Assembly (NCBI GenBank): GCA_001938485.1
Contig: MQRK01238235.1
Span: 1-60,452 of the forward strand
DNA length: 60,452 bases
Origin: Girardia tigrina
Taxonomy: Eukaryota
Direction of reading: 5' to 3'
Both the position numbers and the translations under genes were made by a program. Below the pieces are notes generated by a model that worked only from the letters and a program-made list of their open reading frames with translations, was not told the origin of the DNA and made no database searches. Positions 4,199 to 56,766 of this stretch are shown one piece after another (positions within the stretch are counted from its first letter, which is position 1; the number at the start of each line of letters is the position of its first letter).

Positions 4199-5578
4199 CA
4201 TTCATTTGACCAGAAACAACAATTGAATTGCCGTTTCCCTCATTCAATTTACCTAAAACGTAAATTGATTTAATTATTTAAAAATTCAATAATAAAACTA
4301 AACATTTATTAAAAATTAACAGTATACAAATGAATAATTAACCTAAAATTTCTTCTTTCTTGATGCACTGCGGCATATAGTTATATGGCTTTTGACATAC
4401 ATTAAATATTTGAGTTTGGGCACATTTAATATGCTATCCCTCGCCACGCGCAGCAAAATATTCAGACGATGTTGCTGCTGTGTTAATCCAATGGGGCAAT
4501 TATCAAGATTTACTTGTTCTTCTGACAAAGAACTTTTCACCCTTGATTTAAACGTTGAGTGATATTGCTCAACTGGGTTTAAGAAAGGTGAGTAAGGTGG
4601 CAGATATTTAATCTTATACTGGTTAATATACTCCATAGGTATTTTTAGTTGGGCGTCAATATGAGGACGTGCATTATCTAATACTAAATATATAGTATGA
4701 TCATGAGGGAATATATCTTTTGTAGCTGTAATTAAGTCCTTAATAAATTCCCCAAAATTTTCCATTGTAACTCGTTCCACCTTTATTCAGCTATGCATCA
4801 ATCCATATACCTGATTAATCGCAAATGTGCACATCAGGTTTTGACCTTTTTGTTTCGAAACCACTCTTCGTGCCGGTACACCATGCAATGCTCGTCCAAA
4901 GGTTCTTCTTGTCCACACATTGTATCCACATTCGTCAATGTATATAATATCATCCGAGGATGTTTTATCAAGAAAGCATGTTGCGTACATATACCTTTTT
5001 TCTATGTTTTCGACGGTGTTCCTCTGTACTGGTATATCTTCACATAATTTTAAGGTGATTAACATTTTATCCAGTGTCCTTGCAATGGTTTCGTCTGAAA
5101 CATATGGCTTCATTGACAACTGAATACGCAATTTTTTATTAATTTCCTTAAGCGTCAACAGTGGATTTTCTTCAATTATTTGAAAAAGGACTTCTTTCAT
5201 ATCATCGTCTACTTTGTATTATGTACTCCACCACGTTTTAATTTGGTTATTTGATCATTTTTTAAATAATTCCAAATAATTGACCTTGCCGATTCCCTTT
5301 TGATATTTAGTAAATCCGCGACCTTCACATAATCTTGGTCTTGACTTTCAAATGAGTCTATAATACGCTTCCTATCTTCGTCTGAAATGCGTTTATAGAC
5401 TCGTTTATTAGGATTAGAATTTCCATTAGAATTNNNNNNNNNNNNNNNNNNNNNNNNNNTATAATTAGAATTGAAAAAATTGAATTTTTAAATAATTAAA
5501 TCAATTTACGTTTTAGGTAAATTGAATGTGGGAAACGGCAATTCAATTGTTGTTTCTGGTCAAATGAATGCAAAAACC
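4199..5578 (-). mobile_element. IS630-like Tc1/mariner element (DD35E), disrupted transposase
   Basis: About 90-bp inverted repeats at 4199-4290 and 5480-5570. ORFs 4787..5200 and 4343..4780 carry IYIDECG, VLDNARPH and YLPPYSPFLNPVE, with 35 residues between D2 and E. Confidence 0.9.
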
Positions 5579-8925: not shown

Positions 8926-10429
8926 TAAATATTAAAAAAAAATTATTAATATTACTTATATTCCGAAAAATAATAAAATAATCTAATTTCCTAAAAATTT
9001 CAAGGATTGGATAAAACATATTATAAATTCTCAATGAAATGTAATTTGGTTATAAGTTATAATGTTTTACATAACTTGTTCGTGTATATTTTAATTACAG
9101 TTTCATTTTATTATATTACTTATTTTTATATTAAAAAAATAGAAAAGGAAATCATCTTTTTTGGATTATTAATTAAGAATACTAGAACTGCTTTTTTATA
9201 GTTATAACTAATTTTCATTTAGTTATAAGTTATAACTAATAATATTATTATTATTTGATTACACAAAGGGGAAAATAAATTGCTGCTTTTTCACTGATAC
9301 CTCTCTTCTCATTTTCCCTTAATAAATTAATTCTTCGTAGGTGTTGGACAAATAAAAATAATAAAGTTTACAAAATACTTTAAATACATATATGACGAAT
9401 ATACACACATAAATAAATAAATATCACATAAAATGCTCATAAACACATGAATAATACATGCACAATCACACCTACACGAACACAAATATGGCTGCAAAAT
9501 AAGACAACGGCTCTGACATAAAACTATAATTGACCAATGAGCAATAAAAATAAAGGGTGTGGAAAATTCACATTACAATAAGCAAATGAGAATTTGTTTA
9601 TTTTTCGTTGTGTTGTTCCCATCATTTGTCTCTCCCATATAGAATACAACGTTTTATCATTTTGTTCTAATCTGATAATTACTGAGAACATGCACCAATC
9701 ATGAAAAAAGGAAAACATACATTTTATAATCTCACCTAATATAACAGTTGTATTTCTATTTATGTCTAATTCAGACTTATATTAAATGAATATTAATTTT
9801 ATATATTTTTTTACTTCATTTGCTGAAGTTTTTTTATTCTTCTTTAAGCTAAGTACATTTATTTTAATATATTCTGGGAGTATAATTGAAAAAAAACAGT
9901 TCACAGAAATTTATGTATATTATGAAAGAATCATTATGTATTTTTAATAAAAATTGCAAATCTATTGAAATGAAAAATTACTTTTTAGCCTCAAACTTCC
10001 CAAAATTGAAAACCAATTCAAGTAGAACCACTTTCGCCAGGAGAACAAATTATACGGATTTCCACTAATTCACTTTACATTATTTTTATGTATTCGATTT
10101 TCTTCATGAATCAAACATAATTTTACAGAAAAAATAACACAAGATAAATACAATTATTAAAATAATTTAACAGTTTTATTAATAAATTTGCTTTTAAAAT
10201 TTTATTTATTATTTTTATAAACGCCTTTGTCCTATTTATTTTCAAAATAAACTTTGTTGTGTTTACTTGTAATCAAATTATATTTTACTATAGTTATTTT
10301 GAACCTAATAAATATAAACTTAGTTTTATACATTTTATTATTAGATGTAAATGGTCATCCATTTTTCTACAGGTTTTTTATATCATTTTATTTATATTTA
10401 ATTTAACATATTTACATTTAATAACAACA

Positions 10430-11857
10430 CTCATCCATTTAAAAATATATTTCAAGACAATATATTTCGATGGATCTACCGTCATCTTCAGGTTACTATT
10501 TAATAATCAATTCACCTGTATATAAATTCAAAAATGATAATTACGTAATCGATTGCATGAAATCATGCTAATCAAAAATTCTCAATAAGCTGGTTGAGAC
10601 TGCCGATTGAACATTGATTTTAGGGCAACTTGACCTAATTAACAATGCTTCACACGACACTCTCTCCCAGTAACTGTCAAAATGCTTACACAGAATTTTG
10701 AAATTATCAAAATTAACATAACATTTACATTTTTTCCTATGTTCTGCAATATTACTCTTACTCTCTTTTCGACCATGTTCTTGAATTCGTTTACAGAGAT
10801 GACGGGCAGTCTCTCCAATATATGTGGCATCGCATCCATTACATTTATATTCATAAACAAAATCAGAACAAAGTGTGAAAAGTGTACTAGATTTATTACT
10901 GAACATATTTCAAATTTTATGAGATTGTGATATAATTTTTAAATTTAATTCATTGTTAGTTGCTTTTAACAATGCATTTTTTAAAGTTTTTAAATCCTTC
11001 AGAATAAGGTACAATTAAACAATATTTAGGCATATTATTAATATCTAATGATCCTTTGATTTCTTTCTTAGATCCATCAGGAGAAGTCAAACTCTGATTT
11101 TTCGAAAAATCTTTCAAAAGTATTTTATCTACTGTTTCCTTTATTAATTTTTCTAGAAAAGATTTAGAATAACCATTCTGATTTAACAAAGAACTTAGTT
11201 TATTAACACTTTCTACAGATTTAACAAAAGTGTAAGACAACGACCAGGATCGATAAATTCAGCCTTTAATCATGTTTCTTTTATACTTAAGTTCTCAAAA
11301 ACTATCTAGGGAAGTATATAAACCTGTATCAGTTTGCTTCCTATAAATTCCAGTCTCGTAACAAAGAGATTTTCTTTCAACTAAAGGATCCAGGAAAGGT
11401 AAGACTCCATTCTTTTCATTTTCAACTGTAAAAGTAACATTTGAATGTAACGAATTCATAAAATTTAAAAATGGAAGTTCATCAGCCTGATTTAAAAAAA
11501 CTAGAAATATATCATCAACGTATCGTTTATATACTAAAGGTTGATTTCCATCAAACAGTTTAATTTTATTTTCAATCTTTGAAAGAAAAACAGAAGCTAA
11601 CGTTGGTGCTAACGGTGAACCCATAGCAACCCCATCAGTTTGCTTATACCACTCATTATTAAAAAGAAAACGAACATTTGATATTTCAAAACTTAATAAC
11701 TCTCGAAACCCAACCTCGTCGACAATATGATTTTCTGAATGATTATTTTTCCATAGATCACAACACAAATTCAAGGTTTCAACCAAGGGAACATTTGTAA
11801 ATATACTAGAGATGTCAAAAGAAACCATAAATTCCCTTTCATTCTGTACTTTATAAA
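10430..11857 (-). mobile_element. Penelope-like retroelement (RT + GIY-YIG), 5'-truncated and frameshifted
   Basis: RT motifs VSFDISSIFTNVP, GVAMGSPLAPTLA, RYVDDIF and LPFLD. GIY-YIG motif VYEYKCNGCDATYIGETARHLCKRIQEH (ORFs 11295..11888, 10956..11240, 10568..10906). Confidence 0.93.
10456..10491 (-). ncRNA. Minimal type-I hammerhead ribozyme motif in the PLE 3' region (pLTR)
   Basis: Minus strand reads AAC-CUGAAGA-U-GACGG-UAGAU-CCAUC-GAAA-UAUAUU-GUC. Both core boxes are intact, stem II has 4 of 5 pairs, and the stem-III region is palindromic (AAUAUAUU). It lies about 80 nt past the GIY-YIG stop. Confidence 0.7.
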
Positions 11858-11859
11858 TA

Positions 11860-12902
11860 CAGGGTGTCCCAAAAATATGTATACACATTAAAAATTTAAT
11901 TTTATTGATTAAAAAAGTAAAAATAAGTACGAGTAATATTTATTTATATTGGTCACAGTTTGTTCTCAAACTGACGTCCATCTTGATCCAGACACTTCTG
12001 ACAACGCGAAGCAATGGAATCGCACACATCAACAAACATTTCCCTTGGTATTTTGCTGCATTCATGTTCAATTGCTTCTCTCAATTCTGCGATTGTTGCA
12101 GGTTTCTTAGCGTAGACTTTGTCTTTTAAGTATCCCCATAAGAAAAAATCTAGTGGTGTTAGGTCTGGTGAACGGGGAGGATATTCAACAAAACCTCGTC
12201 GTCCAATCCACCTGTTTGGCAAGAGCTCATCCAGAAAGGAACGAACATCGCGATGGTAATGTGGGGGTGCCCCATCTTGCTGAAAAAAAACTCTTCATCT
12301 TCAAAGTCAATTCTAATNNNNNNNNNNNNNNNNNNNNNNNNNNNNNNNNNNNNNNNNNNNNNNNNNNNNNNNNNNNNNNNNNNNNNNNNNNNNNNNNNNN
12401 NNNNNNNNNNNNNNNNNNNNNNNNNNNNNNNNNNNNNNNNNNNNNNNNNNNNNNNNNNNNNNNNNNNNNNNNNNNNNNNNNNNNNNNNNNNNNNNNNNNN
12501 NNNNNNNNNNNNNNNNNNNNNNNNNNNNNNNNNNNNNNNNNNNNNNNNNNNNNNNNNNNNNNNNNNNNNNNNNNNNNNNNNNNNNNNNNNNNNNNNNNNN
12601 NNNNNNNNNNNNNNNNNNNNNNNNNNNNNNNNNNNNNNNNNNNNNNNNNNNNNNNNNNNNNNNNNNNNNNNNNNNNNNNNNNNNNNNNNNNNNNNNNNNN
12701 NNNNNNNNNNNNNNNNNNNNNNNNNNNNNNNNNNNNNNNNNNNNNNNNNNNNNNNNNNNNNNNGGACTGAATCTACAAAAAACCTTTTTATGTTAAAAAA
12801 ACTATTTATATTAAATATAATGAAAGTTAAACATAAATAAAATTCAATAAAATTCAATAAAATTAAATTTTTAATGTGTATAAATATTTTTGGGACACCC
12901 TG
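11860..12902 (-). mobile_element. DD41D (rosa/Visitor-type) Tc1/mariner element, interior in an N gap
   Basis: TA-flanked TIRs CAGGGTGTCCCAAAAATAT and ATATTTTTGGGACACCCTG. QQDGAPPH...WIGRRGFVEYPPRSPDLTPLD gives 41 residues between D2 and D3. Confidence 0.92.
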
Positions 12903-12904
12903 TA

Positions 12905-13063
12905 GATGGATCTAAGAAAGAAATCGAAGGATCATTAGATATTAATAATATGCCTAAATATTGTTTAATTGTACCTTATTCTGAAGGATTTAAAAACTTT
13001 AAAAATGCATTGTTAAAAGCAACTAACAATGAATTAAATTTAAAAATTATATCACAATCTCAT
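12905..13063 (+). repeat. Inverted near-identical copy of PLE segment 10919-11078
   Basis: GATGGATCTAAGAAAGAAATC...ATCACAATCTCAT is the reverse complement of the PLE interior. Confidence 0.9.
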
Positions 13064-13240
13064 ACATAATGTTTAAATATTATACAGTTTTAAATTTTAA
13101 AAATTCTAAAAATTTATGAGTTTTCCCTATATATTTTCAGAAACAATATGTTTTTGATGGATCATCCTTCATGTTCATGCCACTGAGTAATTATTTGAAT
13201 CAATAACATATAAATGAAAATAGATCATTACGTAATCAAT
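13064..13240 (-). repeat. Diverged PLE pLTR fragment with decayed hammerhead (13141-13185)
   Basis: ACAATATGTTTTTGATGGATCATCCTTCATGTTCA aligns with ACAATATATTTCGATGGATCTACCGTCATCTTCA at 10457-10490. The segment also matches 15961-16085. Confidence 0.65.
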
Positions 13241-14292
13241 TGCATATAAAGACAAAGCAGAACACTTTTTATTAACAATATCATTATCATAATTTAGAAA
13301 CTGAAATCTCTTTTAAATATTTCAGTTATCAAACCTAATTTCGAAAATTTTCCTAAACAAATCAGCCATAAGATCTGCTCGAAATGTTAATTTCGCCCTA
13401 TCAATCAGCAGTTGTTATCCATACTCTTTATTTGTCCGGATAGTTTTGTTATCTGATCGTCATATTTACGGTAATTCGACTTCTTATTTGTGTGAGCATT
13501 CTTAGTGCATGTTTATTTATTGTAATCTGTCATGTTAACATATTTTAAAATAGATATTATTTTTTTAAAATTTTAATAATATTTAAATAACTGCTAAATT
13601 TTACAGCTATTCAAATTGATAAAGCTGTAAATGTAAGTGAATTTAAAATAAAAGAATTTGGAACGGGATTAAAAATTAACAAGTCAATTTAAAATCAAAA
13701 AAAATATATTAAAATCAATTTTTTTCATCTACTTTTTATCAAAAAAAGGTTTGTACTAGAAAGGTAATCGAATTTGCAACTGCATGTTAACATAAGTATC
13801 GTGGTTGCCACGTGGATTTTTATGATGATGAGTGTTTTCAAAGAGAAAATCGAACACTCTTTTACAAGAATGCCGGAATAAACTTCAAAAGCAAAACATG
13901 AATTGACATTTTTTAAGTAAATCTCCAAATTTCACAAAAATATTTTTTTTATATTGCATGGACTTTTATACTTATCGTCTTAATACTTTGTGTATTATGA
14001 GTAAGTATTCATTTTTTCTCCAAGTATACTCTACAGGAGAAAGAAATGTATGAAGAAATTTGATATGCCGGATAGCTTATAAACTATATATATAATTTAT
14101 TCATTATAAACGTGCTCAAATTTCGTCTCTTACATTAAGAAACTCTCACCATTAGTTTTTAAATGCTGAAGTTCAGTTTACTTAAAATAAATTATGAACA
14201 CAAATATTAGCCATTTCATTTTAGAGAATAATTATTTTTTTATCATGTTTGTTAGGTTCGTGATCAATACTTTATAACTTTATTTTATAACT

Positions 14293-15171: not shown

Positions 15172-15960
15172 ATAACAATTAATAATTATTCAAAAAAATT
15201 TTTTTTGAGGAACTTTTCTTTTGTTTTCTTTTTAACCAGATCCATTATACGTAAAAATACTGAATTATAAATACAGAATGTTATTTATTAAAAATGGTAT
15301 TTGTAAGAATTGAATTTATTAATTTTTTAAAATTACAATAATTTTACAGAATTACATTTCAATATATTATTTGATTTAGTCTAAAACAATTTTAACATCT
15401 ATATAAATTTAACTACAAATAATTAATTTACAAGGTTCAAATGTATATTTCTTACTACAAATTTATCATTCTCAAAGTTATTCACATTTTAAAATATCAT
15501 TGTATTAAAAGTTTTTCGGTTCAGAATTTAAATATATATTTAATTCTTAATATTTATTATTCCTTTTAAAATTATTTTAACAAAATCTAAAAAAAATGAC
15601 ATTTATGTTTTTTTAAAATTATTTCAACTTTGCTTATTTTATTCGATTGTAAAAACATATTTTACTTAAATTAACAAAAGATTTTTAGGAATTTAAAATT
15701 ATTTTAATGTTTTTACTTTATTTGTTAAACATTTTTTTAATGAAATTTGTTATTTCATTTTTAAGTTATTTAAACCTTACTTTAAAGTCCTACAATGTTC
15801 AATATTTAATTTTAAATATTTTGAAACTTCCATTATTTAATTTAAAAATTTAAACGAGTTCACCATAATCTTAAAATATACGATTATTATTTATGTGATT
15901 AAATATGAATTTTAATTATTGATAACTTCCTGAATTGTAAAAATTATTTTAAAATTTCTA

Positions 15961-16252
15961 TACATAATATTTAAATATTCTACAGTTTTAAATTTTAAAA
16001 ATTCTAAAAATTTATGAGTTTTCCCTATAAATTTTGAGAAACAATATGTTTTTGATGGTTCTCATGTTCTTGTCCCTGAGTAATTTTGATCACTGAGTAA
16101 CGTGATCAAATTAATAATGCTTTACACGACACTCATAATAACTACAAAATATTTCCTCAGGATGTTGAAATTATCAATATTAATACAACATTTATATTTG
16201 TTTCTATTTTAAACTTTATAACTCTTACCTTCCATTTGGGTACCACGTTAAT
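15961..16252 (-). mobile_element. Old PLE 3' fragment (GIY-YIG tail + pLTR)
   Basis: 16100-16250 is similar to 10638-10780 (AATGCTTYACACGACACTC...). 15961-16085 is similar to 13064-13195. Confidence 0.6.
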
Positions 16253-16666: not shown

Positions 16667-19600
16667 TGGGTTCTTGATCAAAATTATAATTCATTAACAC
16701 CAAATTTTATTTAAAACCTAATTTTATTTACAATGATTGTTACTCCGAATTATTTATTTCCAAAATGTTTTGTATAATAAATTAAAATTTAATTACAATT
16801 TTGTTATTAATATGAAATATTTTTTTAATTTATATAAATAAATCATTTGAAATTATTTTATTATAAATATGATATTACAAATTAATTATTAAAAAATTCA
16901 AGTCACAAAAACGCCTAACATCCCCCTCGTTTTTGAAATTTTTGAATTTTTCGACATTTCGAATAATTCGCCTCCCATTTTTATCTTCCAACTTGTAACT
17001 TCTTTCTTGAATCTTTTCTATAATTTCATATTGGCCCTCGAATCTGTCGTCTCCTTTTGTTCTATTCTCCTTTTGTATCAAGACCTAACTTTATAAATTC
17101 TTTGAGTCACGTTTTCCTCTGGATTGCTTTTTCTTTTAATCTTATTCTGATATCCTCCCGATTTATTTTACTGTTATCATACCACTTTTGTCTGTCTATT
17201 TTCTTGCCAAATACGACTTCTGCTGGACTGCTCCCTATTGTCTTTTGTTTTGTTGCATTTATAGCAAATTCCACGTCCGGTAATATGTCCGCCCAACTTG
17301 TGGCTTTTCTCTCTTTTAAACTTGCATATATAAATTCGCGTATGGTCTTGAATTGTCTTTCGATTATTCCATTTGTATTGTGATGATATGGACTGGAGAA
17401 AATTATTCTAACGCCTTTAGTCTCCAACATTTTCTAACTTTTTTTTGCTTCGAAACTCTTACCTCAATCAACATAAATCTCCTTTGGTGCACTAAATTTT
17501 AATATCCATTTCTACAATATTGTTTTTACATTTGTTTCTTCATCCTGTCTCTTGGTTGCTTGCTCCCTTCTTTAGCGGTTTTAATACTTTGTTCATTAGT
17601 TCCTGAAATGTTCCTGGGGCTGCTGCTATCCCGAAAGGCATCCGTTTAAAACAGAATTGTTCTGATTTAGTGGAAAACGCCGTTTTTTTCCTGTGGTTGC
17701 TTGTCCAATTCTACTTGGCAATATGCGTTTCCTAAGTCTTTTGTGCTGAAATATTTGGTTCCATGTAGCCTATCCATCATTTTCGCTATATTTGGCATGT
17801 GGAATACTTGTCTTTTTGTAATTAGGTTCAACTGTCTGAAATCTAGATATAGTCTGATTTCGTCCATGTCTTTTTTTCCAAAAACATACTATTAGTGTGT
17901 TCCAGTGTGAATTGCATGCCTTTATTATTCCATTTTCCTATAGATTTTTGATTGCTTCCTCGAGTTTGTCCTCTAAGTGTACTGGCTGTCTTCTCAGTTT
18001 TATGTTTATATGTCCCCCTGTTGTTTCTATTCTATGTCATAATAATTTTGTACAGCCGATGTCCCAGTCGTTTGCCATGAATATGCCTTGATATTGGTGA
18101 ATTATTTCCTCTAGTGCTTTATCGTTTCGTGTATCGATCGTTTTCAATGCTTTCTTTCCTCGTTCTTCGTATGTGATTCCTTTCCCAAACTTTGCATCGA
18201 TTTTGCATATGTTAATTTTACTCATATCCAATTTTTTATCTTCTTTCTATTGTAGCTCTATTCCGAAATCTTTCATTAATTACATGTCCCCAATCATGTC
18301 TGGTCTTAAATTCTTTAATATTATAAATCTTATGTTATCTGATTTCTTCCTAATTTTTATCAATGTTTCTATTTCTCCTCTAACATCCATTTTTAATCCA
18401 TTTACTGCTATCAATTTCTGATTTGTTTGTTCCATTTTTATGCTCTTTAATTTCTTAAGTATTTCTTCGGTCATCACGTTTAAGCTTGCTCCCGTATCTA
18501 ATAGACATTCAATTTCTGTGTCCTCAATCATGACTCTGATACTTGGTCGACCCTCTAATATGTTGTATACAATTAGTACATTTATTTATTATCAACAATT
18601 CTCTTTCATTATACGTGTCTTTTTATATAAATTTTACCACTTTGGGACTTGTTTCTGGTTCCTGATAGAAGTTTGGCTCACTCATGAATTCTGACTTATT
18701 TTTATTAATTTTATATATTAATTTTATATATAATTTTACATTTAATTAATTATTTATTTTATTCATATTATTAAAATTATTACTACTATATATATAATAT
18801 ATATGATCAGGTCTGTGTTTAAGAAAACCTACGCTAATGTCAAGATCGGTTCCTCCTCGTCTCGGCACGTTTCGTTTTTTTCTATATGTTATCGCTCTTT
18901 TCAGTATTCTTCCTTCTCCATCATCGCGATATGTTTTCCTCTTTCAAATACTCTTCTGTAGTCGTCTTAGTTCCGGTTTCCTGACATTTTCTTTTGTTCA
19001 TCTGAGAAGTGTCGGCTATCTATTTGGGTTCTCTTTTGATAATCCGTTCTTCCTTGAAATCGTTTATTCAAATTCGTGTAACATTCCTCAGCTCTATGTC
19101 CTGTATTGTTACATCTTCCACATCTTACCTTTTTGCATTCGCGTCGCACATGACCAACTTCTCCACATGCATGGTATGTGATTCTCCTCTGTCGTTTACA
19201 TTCATAACTTTTATGTCCTACTTCCTTACAGTTCCAACATGTGATGTTGTTCTGTATAGAAGATCGTCTTCCGAAGGTATGTCCTTTACTCGATATGTTT
19301 CTTGTTGCCATTTCCATCGTCGTGCCTGTTTTGACTACATCTCTATATGTTGGTCGTATTGCGTGCACCGGCTTTTCCATTCTCCGTAATTCGTCTACTT
19401 TCTTAATGACGTCCTTCACCTCTGTTAATTCTTTCACTTCTCTAAATCTGATTTCTTTCTTCACGTCACTATCTTTTCACGCATGAATTAGAAGGCATTT
19501 CTCTACCTCCGTCTCTGTCCACTCATGTTTCATCAAGTTTACCGCCAACTTTTTTGCTTTAACGAAAAATTCATCCACTGATTCTCCAGATCTCTCGAAG

Positions 19601-22544: not shown

Positions 22545-23650
22545 TTAGGCTGTCCCAAAAGTCCTCAGGTGACCTTTAAAAAACACTAATATTTTACAAA
22601 ATTTAACCAACTTTGGACTGAATATTATTCAGAGTGTAATAAATACTCTGTTAAAATTTCAAAGCATAAAATTTGAAACTTACCAAAAAAATAATATTAT
22701 TAACCAACAAAAAAATTAGATGCAGTGAATTTAAAAATTTATTTAAAAAAAATATTTTAAAAATTTCTTAAGCAACAACATATTCACCATTGTTGTCAAT
22801 AACCAACTGACAATAGTTAAAAAGTTTATCTAGTTGATTTTTAATGTTTCTGTTGATAAAGAATTAAAAAAGAATTTACAAGCTTCTTCAATTTCTTCAT
22901 GTGATTTGAAGACATGATTTTTAAAACTTTTTTTTCATTTTTGAAAACAAGAATCTGTCACACAGATTAAAATCTGGAATATTGATAATTTATTTCAATT
23001 TTTCTTCTTTCAAAAAGAAGAGTTGTTTCTTTGCTAGAATGAGGTCTTGCATTATCATGGCACCACTTAAGTTCTTTTAGCTTGATGTTGTTAGATCTAC
23101 ATTTCCGCCATTTTTCACTGGTGTCATGAACAAAGTTCACATACGCTTCGGAATCAATCTTGGTACCATATGGCAGTGCTTTTACATTAAAACGTTTGTT
23201 GCAGGTAAAGATTACGAAAGCAAGAGATTTTTTATCAGTCATTAGCGATGGCTTCATCACTTTTGGTGGAACAGCATTAGAAGGAATCCAAACTTTGTGA
23301 TTTTCTTTCTTTCCTCTACCTTGGAAAAATACCCATGTCTCATCCTCTATCGCTATGTTGGAATATGCTTTATCACCCATCTGTGAAATTACATGACGTA
23401 TATGCTTTGCAGTGTTAATGCATTGTTATTTATTAGCAGCAGAAAGTCCGAGAGGGACCCAAACAGAGCAAACATTTTTTTGTAATAAAGTTTTTCATGC
23501 AAAATTTTGTGGACTTTATTTTTGCCTAAAGAAAGTTCATTTTCAATATAACGCAAAGACGCATTTGTAGCTTCATCAATCACTTCTTTGACTGCTTTAA
23601 TCTTTTCATCGTCCATTAATGACGGCCTGTCACGTCTTGATGAATCGCCG
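22544..23650 (-). mobile_element. Degenerate mariner-like element abutting a (TA)n tract
   Basis: IAIEDETW, WCHDNARPH and a frameshifted YS-D-NLCD. The terminus CTTAGGCTGTCCCAAAAG directly follows (TA)n. The 5' end is replaced by other insertions. Confidence 0.82.
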
Positions 23651-26389: not shown

Positions 26390-27895
26390 GTTAAGAATAT
26401 TTTTGAATGGTGTTTATTATATGTTATTTTAAGATTGTTTCTCCCACCCAGATGGAAGATTAATATTTTAAATATTTTAAAACGAGGAATTATTTATTCA
26501 ATTTTAAAATTTAAATAACTAACTTTAAAATAAAATTAATATATAAAGAATATATTTAAAATATATTTTTAAAATAATTAAAATTATTTTGTAATTTAAA
26601 TTATAAATTATTTTGAAATTGAATTTTAAAAAAATTGTAATTTAAATTTTTTTGAAGAATAAGACATTTGAAAGAGAAGTAAAAATTTGTCAATCAAGAA
26701 CGATGATTAGTTAAAAGGATCTGTCAAGAATAGTCCTTTTGGCAATTCAAATTGTGATATCAATAAATGTTTTGAAAATCCAATTGTGTTCTTAATATGG
26801 CAACCAACGACCATGTGGCTCCAAAAATCAGAGGTTCAGAGATATTCGACGGATCTGAGTCAAAAGTAGAAGAATTCTTAAAGAGCTTCGGCAGATATGC
26901 AAAGATCATGGAATTTTCAGTATAAAGAAGAGTCTTGCTGGTGACAGTATTCATGACAAGACCATGAAACCAAGAAATAATAATAGAAGAAACAAAGAGA
27001 AATTTCAAAACGAGAATAATTTCTTGTTGGGCCTGCCATGAAGAAAGTCATGAAAGAATGTCGAAACATTAAATGCAACAACTGTAAGAGGAAAGAACAA
27101 GTAAGAACACAGTTTTATGAAAATCCGAATAGATCCTGAGAATGGGAGCAACGGAAACGAGACAACTGAAAGATTGGAAGAGATGACAGAAGAAATTATT
27201 CGATTGTGAAATCTGGAGTGCGAAGGACAAAGACAAGTAGAAAATATCCAGTGGTTGAATTAGAAGAACAAGATGGGACAAAAGGTCCGAAAAAAATAGA
27301 TAGAAGTGAAGATGTGACAAGAAGAGATTACTTCATAAAAATCAAAACAGCATTCTCAAAAAAGAATGACCAATACAGTTTCAAGAGAATGTCTTTCGGA
27401 ATTGCGGCGGCACCAGCAGAGTTCCAGAAAGTAATGGTAAAGGTTTTGGGTGAATTAAGCTGGATAGAGGCAATTATGTATTTGGAAGATATTCTGATTT
27501 TTGCAAAAGATAACAAAGAACACCTCAAACGAATTGAACATGTATTTAATAAAATGAAAAAAACGGGTCTAATAATAAACCCGAAGAAATGCCACTTCTT
27601 GGTTGAAAAGACAATTTTTCTGGTCTGTTTAACCAGACAAAAATCGATGTGATTTGCAAGATTCAGAACCGTTCACGTGTTAAGCACTTTAGAAGTTTTT
27701 TTTGGGTTTAACAAACTATTACAGAAAATTTCTTAAAGATTACGCAAAATATTCAAAAGTATTGGAAAGGCTGTGTGGAAAGAATAAAGATAAGAAATAA
27801 TATATACGGAAGAATGTATCGAGGCGTTTCAAAAATTTAAAAAATGATCAAAACACCAATACTAGCATACCCATATTTTGAAAATGAGTTCATAC
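26390..27895 (+). mobile_element. Gypsy remnant: family A LTR end, PBS, gag start and RT/RNase H fragments
   Basis: LTR end TTCTTAATA at 26797 followed by TGGCAACC. Gag reads MATNDHVAPKIRGSEIFDGSESKVEEFLKSFGRYAKIM, with a CWAC knuckle remnant. RT reads RMSFGIAAAPAEFQ...YLEDILIF, followed by TPILAYP. Confidence 0.85.
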
Positions 27896-31568: not shown

Positions 31569-32850
31569 CGAGGGCGGGTCAATAAGTCCGTGACTTTTGG
31601 AATAAAACACAGATTTTTTGATAAATAAATCATTTTATTTTTCAACGTAGTCTCCCTTGAGCTCTATACACTTTGTCCAACNNNNNNNNNNNNNNNNNNN
31701 NNNNNNNNNNNNNNNNNNNNNNNNNNNNNNNNNNNNNNNNNNNNNNNNNNNNNNNNNNNNNNNNNNNNNNNNNNNNNNNNNNNNNNNNNNNNNNNNNNNN
31801 NNNNNNNNNNNNNNNNNNNNNNNNNNNNNNNNNNNNNNNNNNNNNNNNNNNNNNNNNNNNNNNNNNNNNNNNNNNNNNNNNNNNNNNNNNNNNNNNNNNN
31901 NNNNNNNNNNNNNNNNNNNNNNNNNNNNNNNNNNNNNNNNNNNNNNNNNNNNNNNNNNNNNNNNNNNNNNNNNNNNNNNNNNNNNNNNNNNNNNNNNNNN
32001 NNNNNNNNNNNNNNNNNNNNNNNNNNNNNNNNNNNNNNNNNNNNNNNNNNNNNNNNNNNNNNNNNNNNNNNNNNNNNNNNNNNNNNNNNNNNNNNNNNNN
32101 NNNNNNNNNNNNNNNNNNNNNNNNNNNNNNNNNNNNNNNNNNNNNNNNNNNNNNNNNNNNNNNNNNNNNNNNNNNNNNNNNNNNNNNNNNNNNNNNNNNN
32201 NNNNNNNNNNNNNNNNNNNNNNNNNNNNNNNNNNNNNNNNNNNNNNNNNNNNNNNNNNNNNNNNNNNNNNNNNNNNNNNNNNNNNNNNNNNNNNNNNNNN
32301 NNNNNNNNNNNNNNNNNNNNNNNNNNNNNNNNNNNNNNNNNNNNNNNNNNNNNNNNNNNNNNNNNNNNNNNNNNNNNNNNNNNNNNNNNNNNNNNNNNNN
32401 NNNNNNNNNNNNNNNNNNNNNNNNNNNNNNNNNNNNNNNNNNNNNNNNNNNNNNNNNNNNNNNNNNNNNNNNNNNNNNNNNNNNNNNNNNNNNNNNNNNN
32501 NNNNNNNNNNNNNNNNNNNNNNNNNNNNNNNNNNNNNNNNNNNNNNNNNNNNNNNNNNNNNNNNNNNNAGAGTCCCCATAGTATTTATCAAGCTTAGCCT
32601 TGGTCTCGGTAATGGTTTTTTTTCGCAAAAAATAATGCTTAATAAGCACACGAAATTCACTTTTTTCCATTTTCTCTTCAAATTACTAGGTAGTCTGATA
32701 AAGATAGCTGTGACACACAAACTAAATGACTCAGCAAGTTAAAATTTTTGAGAGGAGTCAACTGACTCATGCCTGTTGACAGGAGCAGTGTTGCTTTTCA
32801 GTAACGAGGTCAGAAATTCAAAAAGTCACGGACTTATTGACCCACCCTCG
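31569..32850 (-). mobile_element. Full-length mariner, irritans (Himar1)-like, interior in an N gap
   Basis: TA-flanked TIRs CGAGGGYGGGTCAATAAGTCCGTGACTTTTG. ORF ends read MEKSEFRVLIKHYFLRKKTITETKAKLDKYYGDS and WTKCIELKGDYVEK. Confidence 0.93.
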
Positions 32851-37186: not shown

Positions 37187-38347
37187 CATGAGAAAAAGAC
37201 CCGTCACATATAACGGGTGAACTGAATTTTCGTCTTAGAAAATTTCTGTTTTAATTTTTAAATCATAATTATTATGATTTATTATTTATTGTTTCAAATT
37301 TTGTGTTGATTTAACAGTCAATCGATTTCGTCCGTTTCGCGGCCTCTTTTGACAAAAGGGCTACATAGACCGATTTGTCTCGATGCGGGCTATACAGATT
37401 AACCACGTTTTTACACGGATTCACTCTGTTTCCTCCACCATTTTGCATTTTATCAGCATTTATATGATAATAGTAAAATTTGAGCTTGACCGACAAACCG
37501 TGATTCAGATGTTAACGAAATTTTGAAAATTTATACTAAAAATATTTTTATCTATACAATTAGTAAATAGGTGATAGAAATCGACAATTATCGATCGAAT
37601 TAATATATTGTGAATAAATTGAAATAAAATTGGCAGATTATTAAAATCAAAATTCCAAAGCCAATTGAAAATATTTATTAATTTCGACGGTTTAACCGTC
37701 ATCGTCAGATCAAATAATTTTTCAAACGAAATTTACTTATATAGTGCAGTTAATGATTACGCAATCCATACGTAATCAGTACATCATTTAAAAACTCTCA
37801 ACAACGTTGTAGAGAATACAGTTTGAACGTTAATTTTAGGATCCAAAGATCTTATATATAACTCTTCACATGTCACTCTCTCCCAATAATTTTTAAATTG
37901 AGCGCACAGAATTTTAAAGTGTTGTGAAGTTATATCTCCTTTACAATTTCTTCTATGTCCTGCAATGTTACTTCCACCTTCATTGCGGTTAAACCGTCGA
38001 AATTAATAAATGTTTTCAATTGACTTTCGAATTTTAATTAATATATTGTTAATGTTTTCTTAAAAATCCTCACGAAATTTCTTGTAGGAATCAAACAAAT
38101 CGGAATAATTCGAATTCGGTGTTGATTTAACAGTCGGTCGACCAGCATGGTTTTCGGTCGATTTCGTCAGCTTCTCGGCGTCTTTCGGCAAAAGCGCTGC
38201 CCCGACAGAACAGCCTTGATACAGGCTATCCAAATTAACCAAATCCTTACGTGGATTCGCTTCGGTCCCTCCACAATTTCGCATTTTGATCATAGCGTGA
38301 CTGACAAACCAACAAACTAACAGTTTAGAAAAATATATATTTTAAGA
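37187..38347 (-). mobile_element. Non-autonomous Helitron-like element with internal duplication and inversion
   Basis: Minus-strand 5' end A|TCTTAAAATATATAT...GTTTGTTGGTTTGTCAGTC. 3' hairpin ACCCGT..ACGGGT (37199-37218), then CATG|T rather than CTAG. Direct repeat 37305-37455 / 38120-38290 and inverted repeat 37637-37698 / 37986-38043. Confidence 0.5.
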
Positions 38348-39285
38348 TTTTGCTTTGCCTTTTCAATTATTTATTTATGTTTTATAATTTAGAGTAATAA
38401 TAATGTACCAGAATGAGATCAATGAAATAAAATTAAAGTTGATCTTTTCGGGATTTACTTTTGTTACAATATTTATTATATTTCTTTTTTTACGGACCAT
38501 TGCAAATTAAAATTTTGTTTTATTTAACTATTCATAATTAACAAATAAAAAAATCACAAAAAATAATATTTAAACAAAATTATTCTTTTAAAAATTGAAA
38601 AAAAATAAACACAAATTTAGAACAAATTTTCGTGTTTATTCACAATTAATATTATTAATATCTTAAATAAATATTTATGCTGAAATAAATCGAAATTCCA
38701 CAGTTTCTATTTATTTCAATAGATTAAATCCGAAAATAATCATTTTCATTGGACAAAAATTAAAGTAAATAGTAAAAATATCACAATTTAAAGCTAAACG
38801 CAATGGAAAAACTTAAATAATTCATAAACTTCCTCATTTTTTATAAGAGAATATCGACAGTTTCCTTTTAGATTTTAGATTACACTCGTTTTGCTTAGCT
38901 AAATTTTTTTATATATCAGATGTATGTTTTTAATATTGACAATAATTTTGGAAAATATTTTTCTTAATAGTTTTTTTTAATTAAATAAATTATAGATTAA
39001 AATCAATATAAATAAGGAAAATATATTAATAATCAAGTCAACTGCCTAGTCAATACAAATAAAAGTTTCTTTTTTAAATAATAATATTTATGAGAGTAAT
39101 AATATTTATTTTATATTCATATAAAAAATGAAAATATTTAATAAATATTTTAAAAAATCATTAACTTAGCAATACTTTCATTACATTTAGCGTACGTAAA
39201 CGAAAGTGTCCAAGATCTATAGATCAAACCTTTTATCATATTTCTTTTATTTTTGGGTCGTAAAAATTGTTAGAAGTTGTATGTA

Positions 39286-40470
39286 ACCCTGTATCAGTTT
39301 TTTTCTAAAGATCCTAGTTTCAAAATCGATATTTCTTTCAAGGATTGATGAAAAAATAAGGCTTTATGATGGTATTAAATCTAAAATTTATAAACTTTAT
39401 GTAGATAATATTATTCATATGTTTGATAATAAAGATCAAGTTACATTTTTCTTAAATTATATGAATACTTTACATTCAAATATTAAATTCACTGTGGAAT
39501 ATAAAAACAATAATGTTTTACCATTCTTAGATTTTTTGATAGAAAGAGCGAAAAATAACCATTTTGAAACTGATATCTACAGAAAGAAAACTGATACATG
39601 GTTATATACAACCCCTAAAAAGTTTTGCGAACCCAAATATAAAAGAAATATAATAAAAAGTTTGATCTATAGATCTTGGACCCTTTCGTCAACATACGCT
39701 AAATGTAATGAAAGTATTGTTAAGTTAATGGATTCGCTTCATAAAAATGGATATTCCAAATCGATAGTTGAAAAATTAACTCTTGAATATAATTATGATA
39801 TAATTATAATATAATTAAATTGGAAAATTAAAATATAAAATTAAATACAATAAATAGCGACAAAAATAACAATCATATAGATAATAATAACTATGATAAT
39901 ATTGGTTTTGTTTTGAGTGTTCCCTACTCTGAGGGTTTCAACAAATTCAAAAAGTGTTTTATGAAACATGATGAAAATAATTTATTAAATTTAAAATTTG
40001 TATCTATTTCATGTATTTTGTAAATATGAAGTTTGTTCAGTAGTAAATCTATCACTCCAACTGCTTTTTGTTCCAATTTAGTTTATCAATATAAATGTAA
40101 TGGGTGTGACGCCACATACATCGGAGAGACTTGTCGTCTTCTCTGTAAACGGATTCAGGAACATAATCGCAGGTAAAGTGATTTTAATATTGCTTAACAT
40201 AGGAATAACTGAATAGTAAATTTGATGTAATTAATTTTTAGATTTTGTGTTCAAAATTTGATAATTACTGGAAGAGGGTGATGTGTGAAGTATTGTTGAT
40301 CAAATACTTTCATCCTAAAATCAATGTCCAAATACCAATCTCTTTAATTTAATTGAGAGTATTTTCATGTTTTATAAATTACATAATGATTAAATAAACC
40401 CGAAAATATCATTGTTAGTTTAGTCTGATGATGACGGTTGATCCGTCAAAATTGAATACAATATATTTTG
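39286..40470 (+). mobile_element. Second Penelope-like element, degenerate, with inverted 5' piece
   Basis: YVDNII, MNTLHSNIKFTVE, LPFLD and YRKKTDT, plus GIY-YIG VYQYKCNGCDATYIGETCR at about 40080-40140. 39286-39341 is an inverted YRKKTDTG segment. Confidence 0.9.
40425..40468 (+). ncRNA. Hammerhead motif in the second PLE (GAAA box mutated to AAAA)
   Basis: CUGAUGA-U-GACGG-UUGAU-CCGUC-AAAA...AAUAUAUU. Perfect 5-bp stem II, at the same position relative to the ORF as 10456-10491. Confidence 0.6.
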
Positions 40471-40570
40471 ACGAACGTTTTTTGATATTCTTTAAACTGA
40501 TTTAAAGATAGATAATTTTGGTCCAAAATATTAAATAAAGAAAAAATATCCCCACAAAATTAATTTATTA

Positions 40571-50779: not shown

Positions 50780-51290
50780 CCTCTACTTTTGTTCTTCTTT
50801 CCTTTTTAACAAGACTAAATCCCCGATTTTGAATATTTGTTGTGTCACTTTTTTTATCCTTTGTTTTACATTTTCTCGATCTTTTTTTACCGCTTAATCA
50901 TTGATTTAGATCTACTTTCCTGCTAGGAACACCACCTCTGCTGTGCTGCAACATACCGTTTTCTGTTTTCCTGCATTTATAGCAAGTGTTTTCTCTGGTA
51001 AAATATCTCATCAGCTCGCTTTATTTTAGACTTGCTTGTATAATTTTTTGAATTGTTCAAAACTGTCTCTCAATTATCTTGTTTATTTTACAGGGGTATG
51101 GGCTAGAGATGTCAAGCTCGAATCATTTGAAGTCCAGCATTTCTTTGAGTTTCTTAGCTTCGAAACTCTTCCTCAATCAACGTGAATATATTTTGTTGGT
51201 CCAAAATTTATTATCAATTTCTGCAGTGTAGTTTGTACTATTGTTTCCTTGCCCTGTCTCTTTATTGCCATCTAGCTCAATTAGTTACTA
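50780..51290 (-). mobile_element. Gypsy integrase fragment
   Basis: Similar to 17100-17560, for example CTTCGAAACTCTT(A)CCTCAATCAAC. Confidence 0.75.
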
Positions 51291-55589: not shown

Positions 55590-56766
55590 TTAGGGTGAAC
55601 CAAAAGTATTTTTGTATTTTTTATTAAAAATTTAAACATCATTTTACAACAAATAAAAAACATTTAAGTTTCAAAGTAAAGGCCATTTGAATCTATTGCT
55701 TGAACCCATCTATGGGCAAGTTGTGCGATCCTGCTGCGGTACCAATCCTTGTTCTTAGAAGCAAAGAACTGGTGACACCCGTTTTCGACTTCGGCCAGAT
55801 TATTGAAGCTGCAACCACGAAGAAAGTGTACCATAGAGCTGAAAAGGTGATTGTCGGATGGCGCAGGATCCGGACTATACGCTGGGTGTGAAAGAAGTTC
55901 AAAGGCATCGAGATTTTTGATTTTTTCTTTGTTTGTTTGGCGGTGTGCGGTTTTGCATTGTCCTGTTGTAGAAGAACTCGCTTTCGATTGATCGAACACA
56001 CTGATAAACACACAAAAGTGCCTTCCTTGAAAAACGATCTCGTTTCGCTATCGGTTTCGCCATTTGTCCGGGGTCCAACCCTTGACTTTGTTGGTCTGAA
56101 TTACTGAAGTAAACCAACTTTTCATAGCAAGTTACAATTACACGGATGAAATGGTTATTGCGCGGATTTTCAAGCAATTTTTGACAAGTTTCGAAACGCT
56201 TTTCGACTTGAATTTGTGTCAATTCATGAGACCCTTCTCGACATCGTCTATTGACCTTGCTAAGAGCGTGAAGGTGTCGTACAATGGTTGTTTGAAGAAT
56301 ATCGAGTTCGACCGACAATCTGTGAGTACTTATTGACGGATTTATCTCGACGGCTTCATGAATTGCTACGGAATATACGGTGATAGGTCGGCCTGAACGT
56401 GCATTGTCTCCGAGGTCAATGTCGCCTTCGTTGAACCTTTTAAACCAATTTTGTGCAGTACGATTTGAGACCATATTATCGCCTTCAACTTCGCATATCT
56501 TCTTTGTTGTTGCAGTTGCGTTTAAGCCAATTTTCCAGTAATGGCGTAAAAGAACACGAATTTCAAAATTTTCCATGATTTTTCTAAAAGACCATAAAAA
56601 TTATATTAACCACTAATCAGAAGTTTTAATATATATATTGCGATAGAGCAGTTTAAGAGCTTTCAAAACATATAACACATGTATATAAAATATCTTTATA
56701 ATGGTAATAAGAAACAATTGAACAAAAAGACGTAGAAAATACGAAAAGAATTTTGGTTGACCCTAA
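55590..56766 (-). mobile_element. Near full-length mariner with an internal deletion
   Basis: TA-flanked TIRs TTAGGGTGAACCAAAA and TTTTGGTTGACCCTAA. ORFs read MENFEIRVLLRHYWK...RSGRP, QQDNAKPH and HPAYSPDPAPSD...NGLYFE. Confidence 0.93.

Follow-up and report, generated by a model that had tools for sequence, protein, structure and literature searches.

Minimal hammerhead motifs in Penelope-like elements of Girardia tigrina and their predicted overlap with the start codon

Hammerhead motifs of Penelope-like elements (PLEs) have been known as a class since 2014, and their role has been described as 'still unclear' (PMC8557442). One such motif lies in a stretch of 60,452 nucleotides from Girardia tigrina (contig MQRK01238235.1, GC content 27.6%), here called the window, in which 10491-10456 (-) reads CTGAAGA-T-GACGG-TAGAT-CCATC-GAAA-TATATT-GTC and follows the stop codon (10570-10568 (-)) of a GIY-YIG endonuclease piece after a gap of 76 nt. 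The original prediction held that the ribozyme processed the transcripts of its element. Whether the motif is a hammerhead, how it has been kept, and whether its cleavage made the ends of the RNA that was copied into the genome are the questions that this locus raises. The first has a plain answer: the motif, here called copy A, is a mutated minimal type-I hammerhead in the pseudo-LTR (pLTR) of a PLE, and is of a known kind. Since the class itself is not new, the finding in its original form is ordinary; what gives it value is the test material that this genome offers for the role of PLE hammerheads, namely five covarying families, thousands of intact copies and, in three families, an AUG in the core.

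The features of copy A and of the other copies in the window are collected in Table 1. The core of copy A is intact; one mutation lies in stem I, which retains two of its three pairs, and one in stem II. The endonuclease piece has two cysteines between the equivalents of GIY and YIG. The 5' junction of this family A element lies near 11857, and an inverted fragment of the same element, likely a 5' inversion, is parted from the element body by a TIR-bounded insert (11858-12904). The inverted repeats at the ends of this insert are 51 nt long and 98% alike, with TACAGGGTGTCCC as their first letters, and the insert looks like a non-autonomous DNA transposon.

Table 1. Coordinates of hammerhead motifs and associated element pieces in the window.
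Feature	Position	Strand	Remark or basis
Family A minimal hammerhead, whole motif (copy A)	10456-10494	-	sequence reading
Copy A, stem I 5' side	10494-10492	-	AAC (family form GAC)
Copy A, core CUGAAGA	10491-10485	-	
Copy A, bulged U	10484	-	
Copy A, stem II	10483-10479/10473-10469	-	CCAUC (family form CCGUC)
Copy A, GAAA	10468-10465	-	
Copy A, palindrome AUAUAU	10465-10460	-	
Copy A, H17 = U	10459	-	
Copy A, stem I 3' side GUC	10458-10456	-	
Copy A, predicted cut	between 10459 and 10458	-	
AUG from A9, bulged U and G10.1	10483-10485	-	at the window locus followed by tail only
ORF start repeated as 3' end of the insertion	10417-10458	-	short-tail class, end at about AUG+68
GIY-YIG endonuclease piece	10568-10909	-	Pfam GIY-YIG, E 2.3e-06
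Reverse transcriptase piece, 5'-truncated frameshifted family A copy	11298-11849	-	Pfam RVT_1, E 2.8e-10
Inverted fragment of the same family A element	12905-13064	+	sequence comparison
Decayed pLTR, core broken (C3, G8 and G12 changed)	13129-13245	-	homologue nearest to families A/E
Duplicate of the decayed pLTR	16038-16075	-	3' half of the motif alone recognisable
Family C hammerhead (copy C)	37673-37711	-	preceded by a GIY-YIG tail at about 37790-37990
Family B hammerhead (copy B)	40423-40459	+	terminates a degraded PLE (about 39160-40500)

Assembled by inspection from several broken copies, the single ORF of the element encodes a reverse transcriptase (RT) and then a C-terminal GIY-YIG domain (Pfam RVT_1 and GIY-YIG). 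A DKG motif is present in the form KFDKG, as is a CCHH motif made up of YEYKCNGCDATYIG and two later histidines, and the linker between RT and endonuclease, read in three frames, contains no CX2-5CxxC zinc finger, a feature present in Neptune and Nematis (PMC8557442). 5' truncation, inverted 5' pieces and an optional tail of 30-40 nt were all found. Read against the clade criteria for Penelope/Poseidon given in the same source, these features point to an EN+ PLE of the Penelope/Poseidon type. The pLTR that lies 3' of the ORF holds the hammerhead, which in tandems recurs 5' of the ORF.

Both PLE copies that had been recognised in the window are present, and the letters quoted for copy A and for copy B (40425-40451 (+), CTGATGA-T-GACGG-TTGAT-CCGTC-AAAA) agree with the sequence, but a third copy, of a third family (copy C), had been overlooked. 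Copies A and B both lie 3' of GIY-YIG tails, and their elements are 67.6% identical over 1,020 nt. Copy B carries the mutations G12>A and U16.1>A, and its ribozyme is predicted to be dead. Copy C, in which core, stem II, the hexamer AUUAAU and H17 = A are intact and the second stem I pair is broken, is the sole window copy with both core and stem II intact. The suspicion that copies A and B may be dead is right in so far as all three window copies are damaged (A in stems I and II, B at G12 and U16.1, C in stem I). The palindrome thought to be shared by copies A and B had been misplaced: AATATATT, at 40460-40467, lies 3' of the cut site of copy B, and the true palindrome is the hexamer from A15.1 to U16.1, which in copy B reads AUUGAA, mutated from the AUUAAU or AUUGAU of family B. 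As for the two decayed homologues reported earlier, that at 13129-13245 is genuine (72% identity to 10445-10558), whereas in the other only the 3' half of the motif can be recognised; since 13062-13163 and 15960-16061 are 95% identical, the two are not independent. Every hammerhead copy in the window trails a broken or truncated element, and an ORF follows none of them. A scan of both strands for CTGA.GA...GAAA returned six strings, namely copy A, copy C (37708 (-)) and four without visible stems. Neither stem II nor stem I was seen by eye in the core-like strings at 51014, 52661 and 57265, and CTGACGA...GAAA at 38170 (-), within the duplicate 37322-37451/38158-38287, has no stem II; all four were treated as chance.

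In the 1.43-Gb assembly (255,254 contigs), the core with stem II, searched as CTGANGATGACGG-N4-6-CCGTCGAAA, has 12,214 exact matches and its reversed control none, and the complete family A motif, both strands of stem I included, has 2,233. An anchor of core and stem II, with at most two substitutions, gave 270 hits in 279 loci, 229 of them distinct; as the loci were picked by likeness to the query, they form a non-random sample, to which families with another stem II are invisible. Sorted by their flanks, the copies fall into families A (95), B (49), C (65), D (5) and E (5), with 10 unassigned. At positions outside the anchor, U16.1 is kept in 221 of the 229 copies and H17 is other than G in 226. 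The first and second pairs of stem I are formed in 209 and 217 copies, respectively, and the third in 83/95 copies of family A, 63/65 of C, 5/5 of D, 4/5 of E and 2/49 of B. Stem I reads GAC/GUC in A and D, GAU/AUC in E, GUU/AAU or AAC in C and GU/AC in B, with a length of 3 bp in A, D and E, 3-4 in C and 2 in B; these changes are compensatory across the five families. The hexamer from 15.1 to 16.1 is AUAUAU in A and E, AUUAAU in B, C and D, and AUUGAU in 12 of the 49 family B copies, all three forms being self-complementary, and stem II is identical in all five families sampled.

When 13 natural copies from the five families (ten family representatives and the three window copies) were set on the fold, 95.1% of cells were paired, against 23-62% in slid controls. 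Their covariation score of 0.311 was equalled in none of 500 shuffles, and the number of doubly changed pairs (three) was reached in 453 of 500; the covariation support comes from four distinct stem I types, and related rows inflate such tests. The unpaired nucleotide between A9 and stem II is present, and G10.1-C11.1 is GC in 13/13 copies, although these are anchor positions whose counts are not independent. The positions outside the anchor fit the requirements of a hammerhead. The identification as a minimal type-I hammerhead of PLE pLTRs is thus upheld by the genome-wide matches and by a structure kept across families, and in the family consensus, on which it had been made to depend, the CUGANGA/GAAA core is intact and stem I is 3 bp long, with 2,233 exact copies in family A. 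At 1167 (-) of locus L069 lies a hammerhead-like motif whose stem II differs (GGCGG...CCGGC); it possibly represents a sixth family, beyond the reach of the anchor. In two other loci (L182 and L184; G000:C227858 and C252055) the 13 nt between two GTC repeats are deleted, and G12 to H17 are gone.

The extra U after A9 had been correctly noted in copies A and B, but its part in the first AUG of the ORF had escaped notice. A9, this U and G10.1 form an AUG that opens M-T-V-x-P-S-K in all five families, in a frame that is open across the shared tail in most copies. The frame was traced by walking upstream from the RT in families A, B and C. In a first set of family A loci, three of 30 have an upstream ribozyme on the same strand: the AUG frame is open for 270 codons without a break in L173, reaches the RT motif FMVSFDISSLFTNVP after one stop and an in-frame deletion in L169, and resumes after a stop at codon 37 in L156. 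In a second set of 30, three loci are open for 149-253 codons (L191 149, L192 253, L219 235), one further locus starts in an N gap, and 26 are without a long open frame from the AUG (early stops, indels, truncation, N gaps). An in-frame stop lies seven codons upstream of the AUG in family A, without an intervening methionine, and just upstream of it in family C, with no other methionine. The frame evidence for families B and C is thin. Three of 30 family C loci are informative, and two of them are in frame (L224, open for 192 codons, and L248, with one early stop), the third (L233) being shifted by one base; the single informative locus among 30 of family B (L273) agrees in its overall frame but has, within a stretch that is shifted locally, a stop at codon 23. 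The N-termini of the three families are 52-54% identical (98/180, 96/184 and 94/175), and codons 1-7 are alike base for base, codon 4 excepted. From these frames, A9-U-G10.1 is likely the start codon of the element ORF in all three families. Where N7 is U, as in families B and E (e.g. L273, 1149-1160), a second in-frame AUG (A6-U7-G8) directly precedes A9-U-G10.1.

Reading the codons onto the fold places G12 at the third base of Ser6, A13-A15.1 at Lys7 and the predicted cut after ORF nucleotide 27. One side of each stem II pair is non-synonymous in M-T-V-x-P-S-K, and stem II is likely invariant for this reason; we infer that it is frozen by its double duty in codons and fold. The overlap with AUG is not general, since A9-U-G occurs in only 10 of 56 published examples by our own count in the supplement of PMC4209133, a paper whose main text, in the part available, mentions neither AUG, ATG nor start codon. 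Protein and Pfam searches with the N-terminal 270 residues gave no match, and none of 64 longer relatives, compared as proteins, starts with M-T-V-x-P-S-K.

The ends of genomic copies bear directly on whether the copied RNA had been cut. In family A, 90 copies have flank enough to place the 3' end: it lies at AUG+55 to +84 in 31 of them and at +95 to +114 in 41, and the other 18 run on; among 63 of family C, 18 end at +55 to +69, 41 at +85 to +109 and four run on. The ends thus form two clusters, 30-85 nt past the cut site, and none of the 153 copies ends at the cut site (+27) or anywhere before AUG+55. On the 5' side, none of 29 other copies bearing the 5' end of the ORF starts at the cut site; four of the 29 are true tandems, and in L200, L205, L211 and L219 an upstream copy has a pLTR match of at least 248 nt. 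A pattern for starts at the cut site has five matches, and a control boundary 2 nt upstream has one, an excess that is not significant; the five consist of two genuine cases (L180 and L181), one microhomology jump and two GTC-GTC deletions. Because the copies span the cut site at both 3' and 5' ends, the RNA template of genomic copies was uncut, or cut and re-ligated. The claim that the ribozyme processed element transcripts for transposition is, in that form, not supported by these counts, and the genomic record speaks for a regulatory or late role rather than for end-processing.

Two insertions have a 5' end exactly at the predicted cut: L181/L189 (L189 = G000:C226362, 114-1380), which extends about 230 codons into the ORF, and L180 (G000:C104082), which extends about 75 nt to the long-tail end. 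Both are possible copies of cleaved RNA. Public RNA data comprise 21 runs, all of them assembled contigs and mostly of unrecorded library type. Seven runs, compared on two stretches, have high depth over the whole 3' end and show the presence of the families alone; in these contigs neither a ribozyme-specific feature nor a well-supported splice or circle joint was found. For an intron like that of D. virilis, immediately 5' to the ribozyme, no supporting joint was found in the contigs compared.

Folding is consistent with weak activity. In a model without the tertiary contacts of the core, the active monomer of natural near-typical copies is marginal (-2.4 to +0.6 kcal/mol), and the probability of the first stem I pair is at most 0.021 in all five families. 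The strand-swapped dimer gains 10-13 kcal/mol over a pair of active monomers. In family A the active dimer (-17.6 kcal/mol) ties with twice the best fold of the monomer (-17.0 kcal/mol), and in families B-E it loses to the best alternative folds. Slow cleavage, as a dimer or assisted by protein, is predicted for the intact family form, and such marginal folds fit the low or protein-dependent activity published for the class. A second AAUAUAUU within 10417-10458 (-) is able to pair with the core; in families A and E it can pair with G12-U16.1 (0/200 shuffles each), and anti-core pairing is absent from B, C and D (161 and 94-108 of 200 shuffles). An anti-core hairpin as a general off-switch was rejected, being confined to A and E and automatic from a local duplication of the palindrome.

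The minimal hammerheads of metazoan PLEs (Cervera and de la Pena 2014, PMC4209133) have in common with those described here the type I topology, a U-rich 5' flank, CUGANGA with one bulged nucleotide, G10.1-C11.1, a palindromic 15-16 region, a short stem I, a place in the pLTR and many families per genome. In Fig. S3 of that paper, the row for Schmidtea mediterranea agrees with the motifs here in the bulged U, in the 5 bp of stem II and in the 5 nt of its loop. The motifs here differ from the published ones in stem III, which has a 2-nt insert and a 6-nt palindrome like the Drosophila variants (PMC4209133), and in stem I, which is 2-4 bp long. The small PLE hammerheads of Lunse, Weinberg and Breaker (2016/17) have the same very short palindromic stem III, for which cleavage as a dimer was proposed (PMC6765202), a likeness drawn from review passages and not at the level of variants. 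Non-LTR retrozymes (bioRxiv 10.64898/2026.07.22.740005) also carry type I hammerheads related to those of PLE pLTRs; however, they are non-coding tandem units, whereas the motifs here lie on the ends of coding PLEs, and in an unsystematic look at the fetched loci no short tandem units were noticed.

In the literature, where most titles were judged from listings, an overlap with the start codon is stated in PMC11167929 only. The element concerned, PAc (Frangieh et al. 2024), is a Poseidon of Anolis carolinensis in which the ORF begins at stem II and the cut falls 26 nt after the start codon, compared with a predicted cut after ORF nucleotide 27 here. PAc is cleaved only in the presence of protein, and its uncut RNA is the main substrate (PMC11167929). 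'Tail' 3' ends at two sites are common to PAc and families A and C, although they lie at +111 to +118 in PAc and at about +65 and +100 here. The host here is AT-rich, stem II is shorter and the elements are known from sequence alone; the overlap, described in one lizard element, is found here in three families whose proteins are no closer than 52-54% identical.

We consider it probable (about 0.8) that the ribozyme of these elements overlaps the start codon and is slow and dependent on a dimer or on protein, and that the uncut RNA is both message and template. In a tandem, transcription from the upstream copy would read through the ribozyme, and the uncut RNA would be translated from the AUG inside it, where A6 of the core would provide the A at -3. 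The same uncut RNA would serve as the template of reverse transcription, with initiation at two points in the ORF, about 65 and 100 nt from its start. A cut after ORF nucleotide 27 would part the cap and start codon from the ORF, and since it would strip both, it is likely a rare, late or inactivating step and not the maker of the template ends. The model of Cervera and de la Pena, according to which tandem transcripts are cut to unit-length RNA, linear or circular, and then reverse-transcribed, would agree with catalytic positions kept across five families and with the two insertions whose 5' end is the cut site itself; copies that span the cut would be expected from a re-ligated circle, too. 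Nevertheless, normal processing of this kind appears improbable to us, given the lack of ends (0/153) and starts (0/29) at the cut site, a cut-site pattern of five matches against one for the control in a family of at least 2,233 copies, the loss of the AUG from cut linear RNA and the finding that ribozyme mutants of PAc still insert in vitro (PMC11167929).

It is more improbable still that the motif cleaves no more and is kept as start codon region and as a hairpin for the protein of the element, its hammerhead look being inherited. Stem II, G12 and A13-A15.1 do fall within codons 1-7, folding predicts that the active monomer is rare, and the core of families A and E can be sequestered by pairing with the repeat downstream; but C3-A6 and G8, located 5' of the AUG, are invariant, the 5' strand of stem I, which is non-coding, changes together with codon 10, and H17 avoids G despite its third codon position. 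Chance resemblance in AT-rich repeat DNA can safely be set aside: an Rfam scan of the window did give eight matches at E<=10 with no hammerhead among them, yet the genome-wide counts and the cross-family pairing refute chance, and position and geometry fit the published metazoan consensus (PMC4209133). Beyond the preferred reading of a slow ribozyme over the start codon, the hammerhead might conceivably be a translation switch throughout a broad Penelope/Poseidon branch, from the lizard to the elements studied here, with the core supplying the AUG and its context and a protein-assisted cut after codon 9 removing the AUG. This extension is tentative, we would sooner doubt than adopt it, and it may already have been published. 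If it were true, the protein of the element would shut off translation of the very RNA that it binds, and the palindrome repeat downstream in families A and E would keep the ribozyme off beforehand.

Some minor observations concern other repeats. An internally deleted family B unit (L188, G000:C170731, with relatives L252-L259) joins an N-terminal piece of the ORF to the endonuclease end and pLTR; it occurs twice, 1,590 nt apart, and again on several contigs at 96-99% identity, and is perhaps carried by another repeat. Within the window, 4199-4290 and 5479-5570 are inverted repeats of 99% identity. The frames at 4199-5570, 22967-23425, 31635-32738 and 55664-56600 are presumably broken transposases of Tc1/mariner- or IS630-like type, and the zinc-knuckle and RT-like fragments at 18967-19476 and 27170-27652 look like what we take to be broken pieces of LTR retrotransposons.
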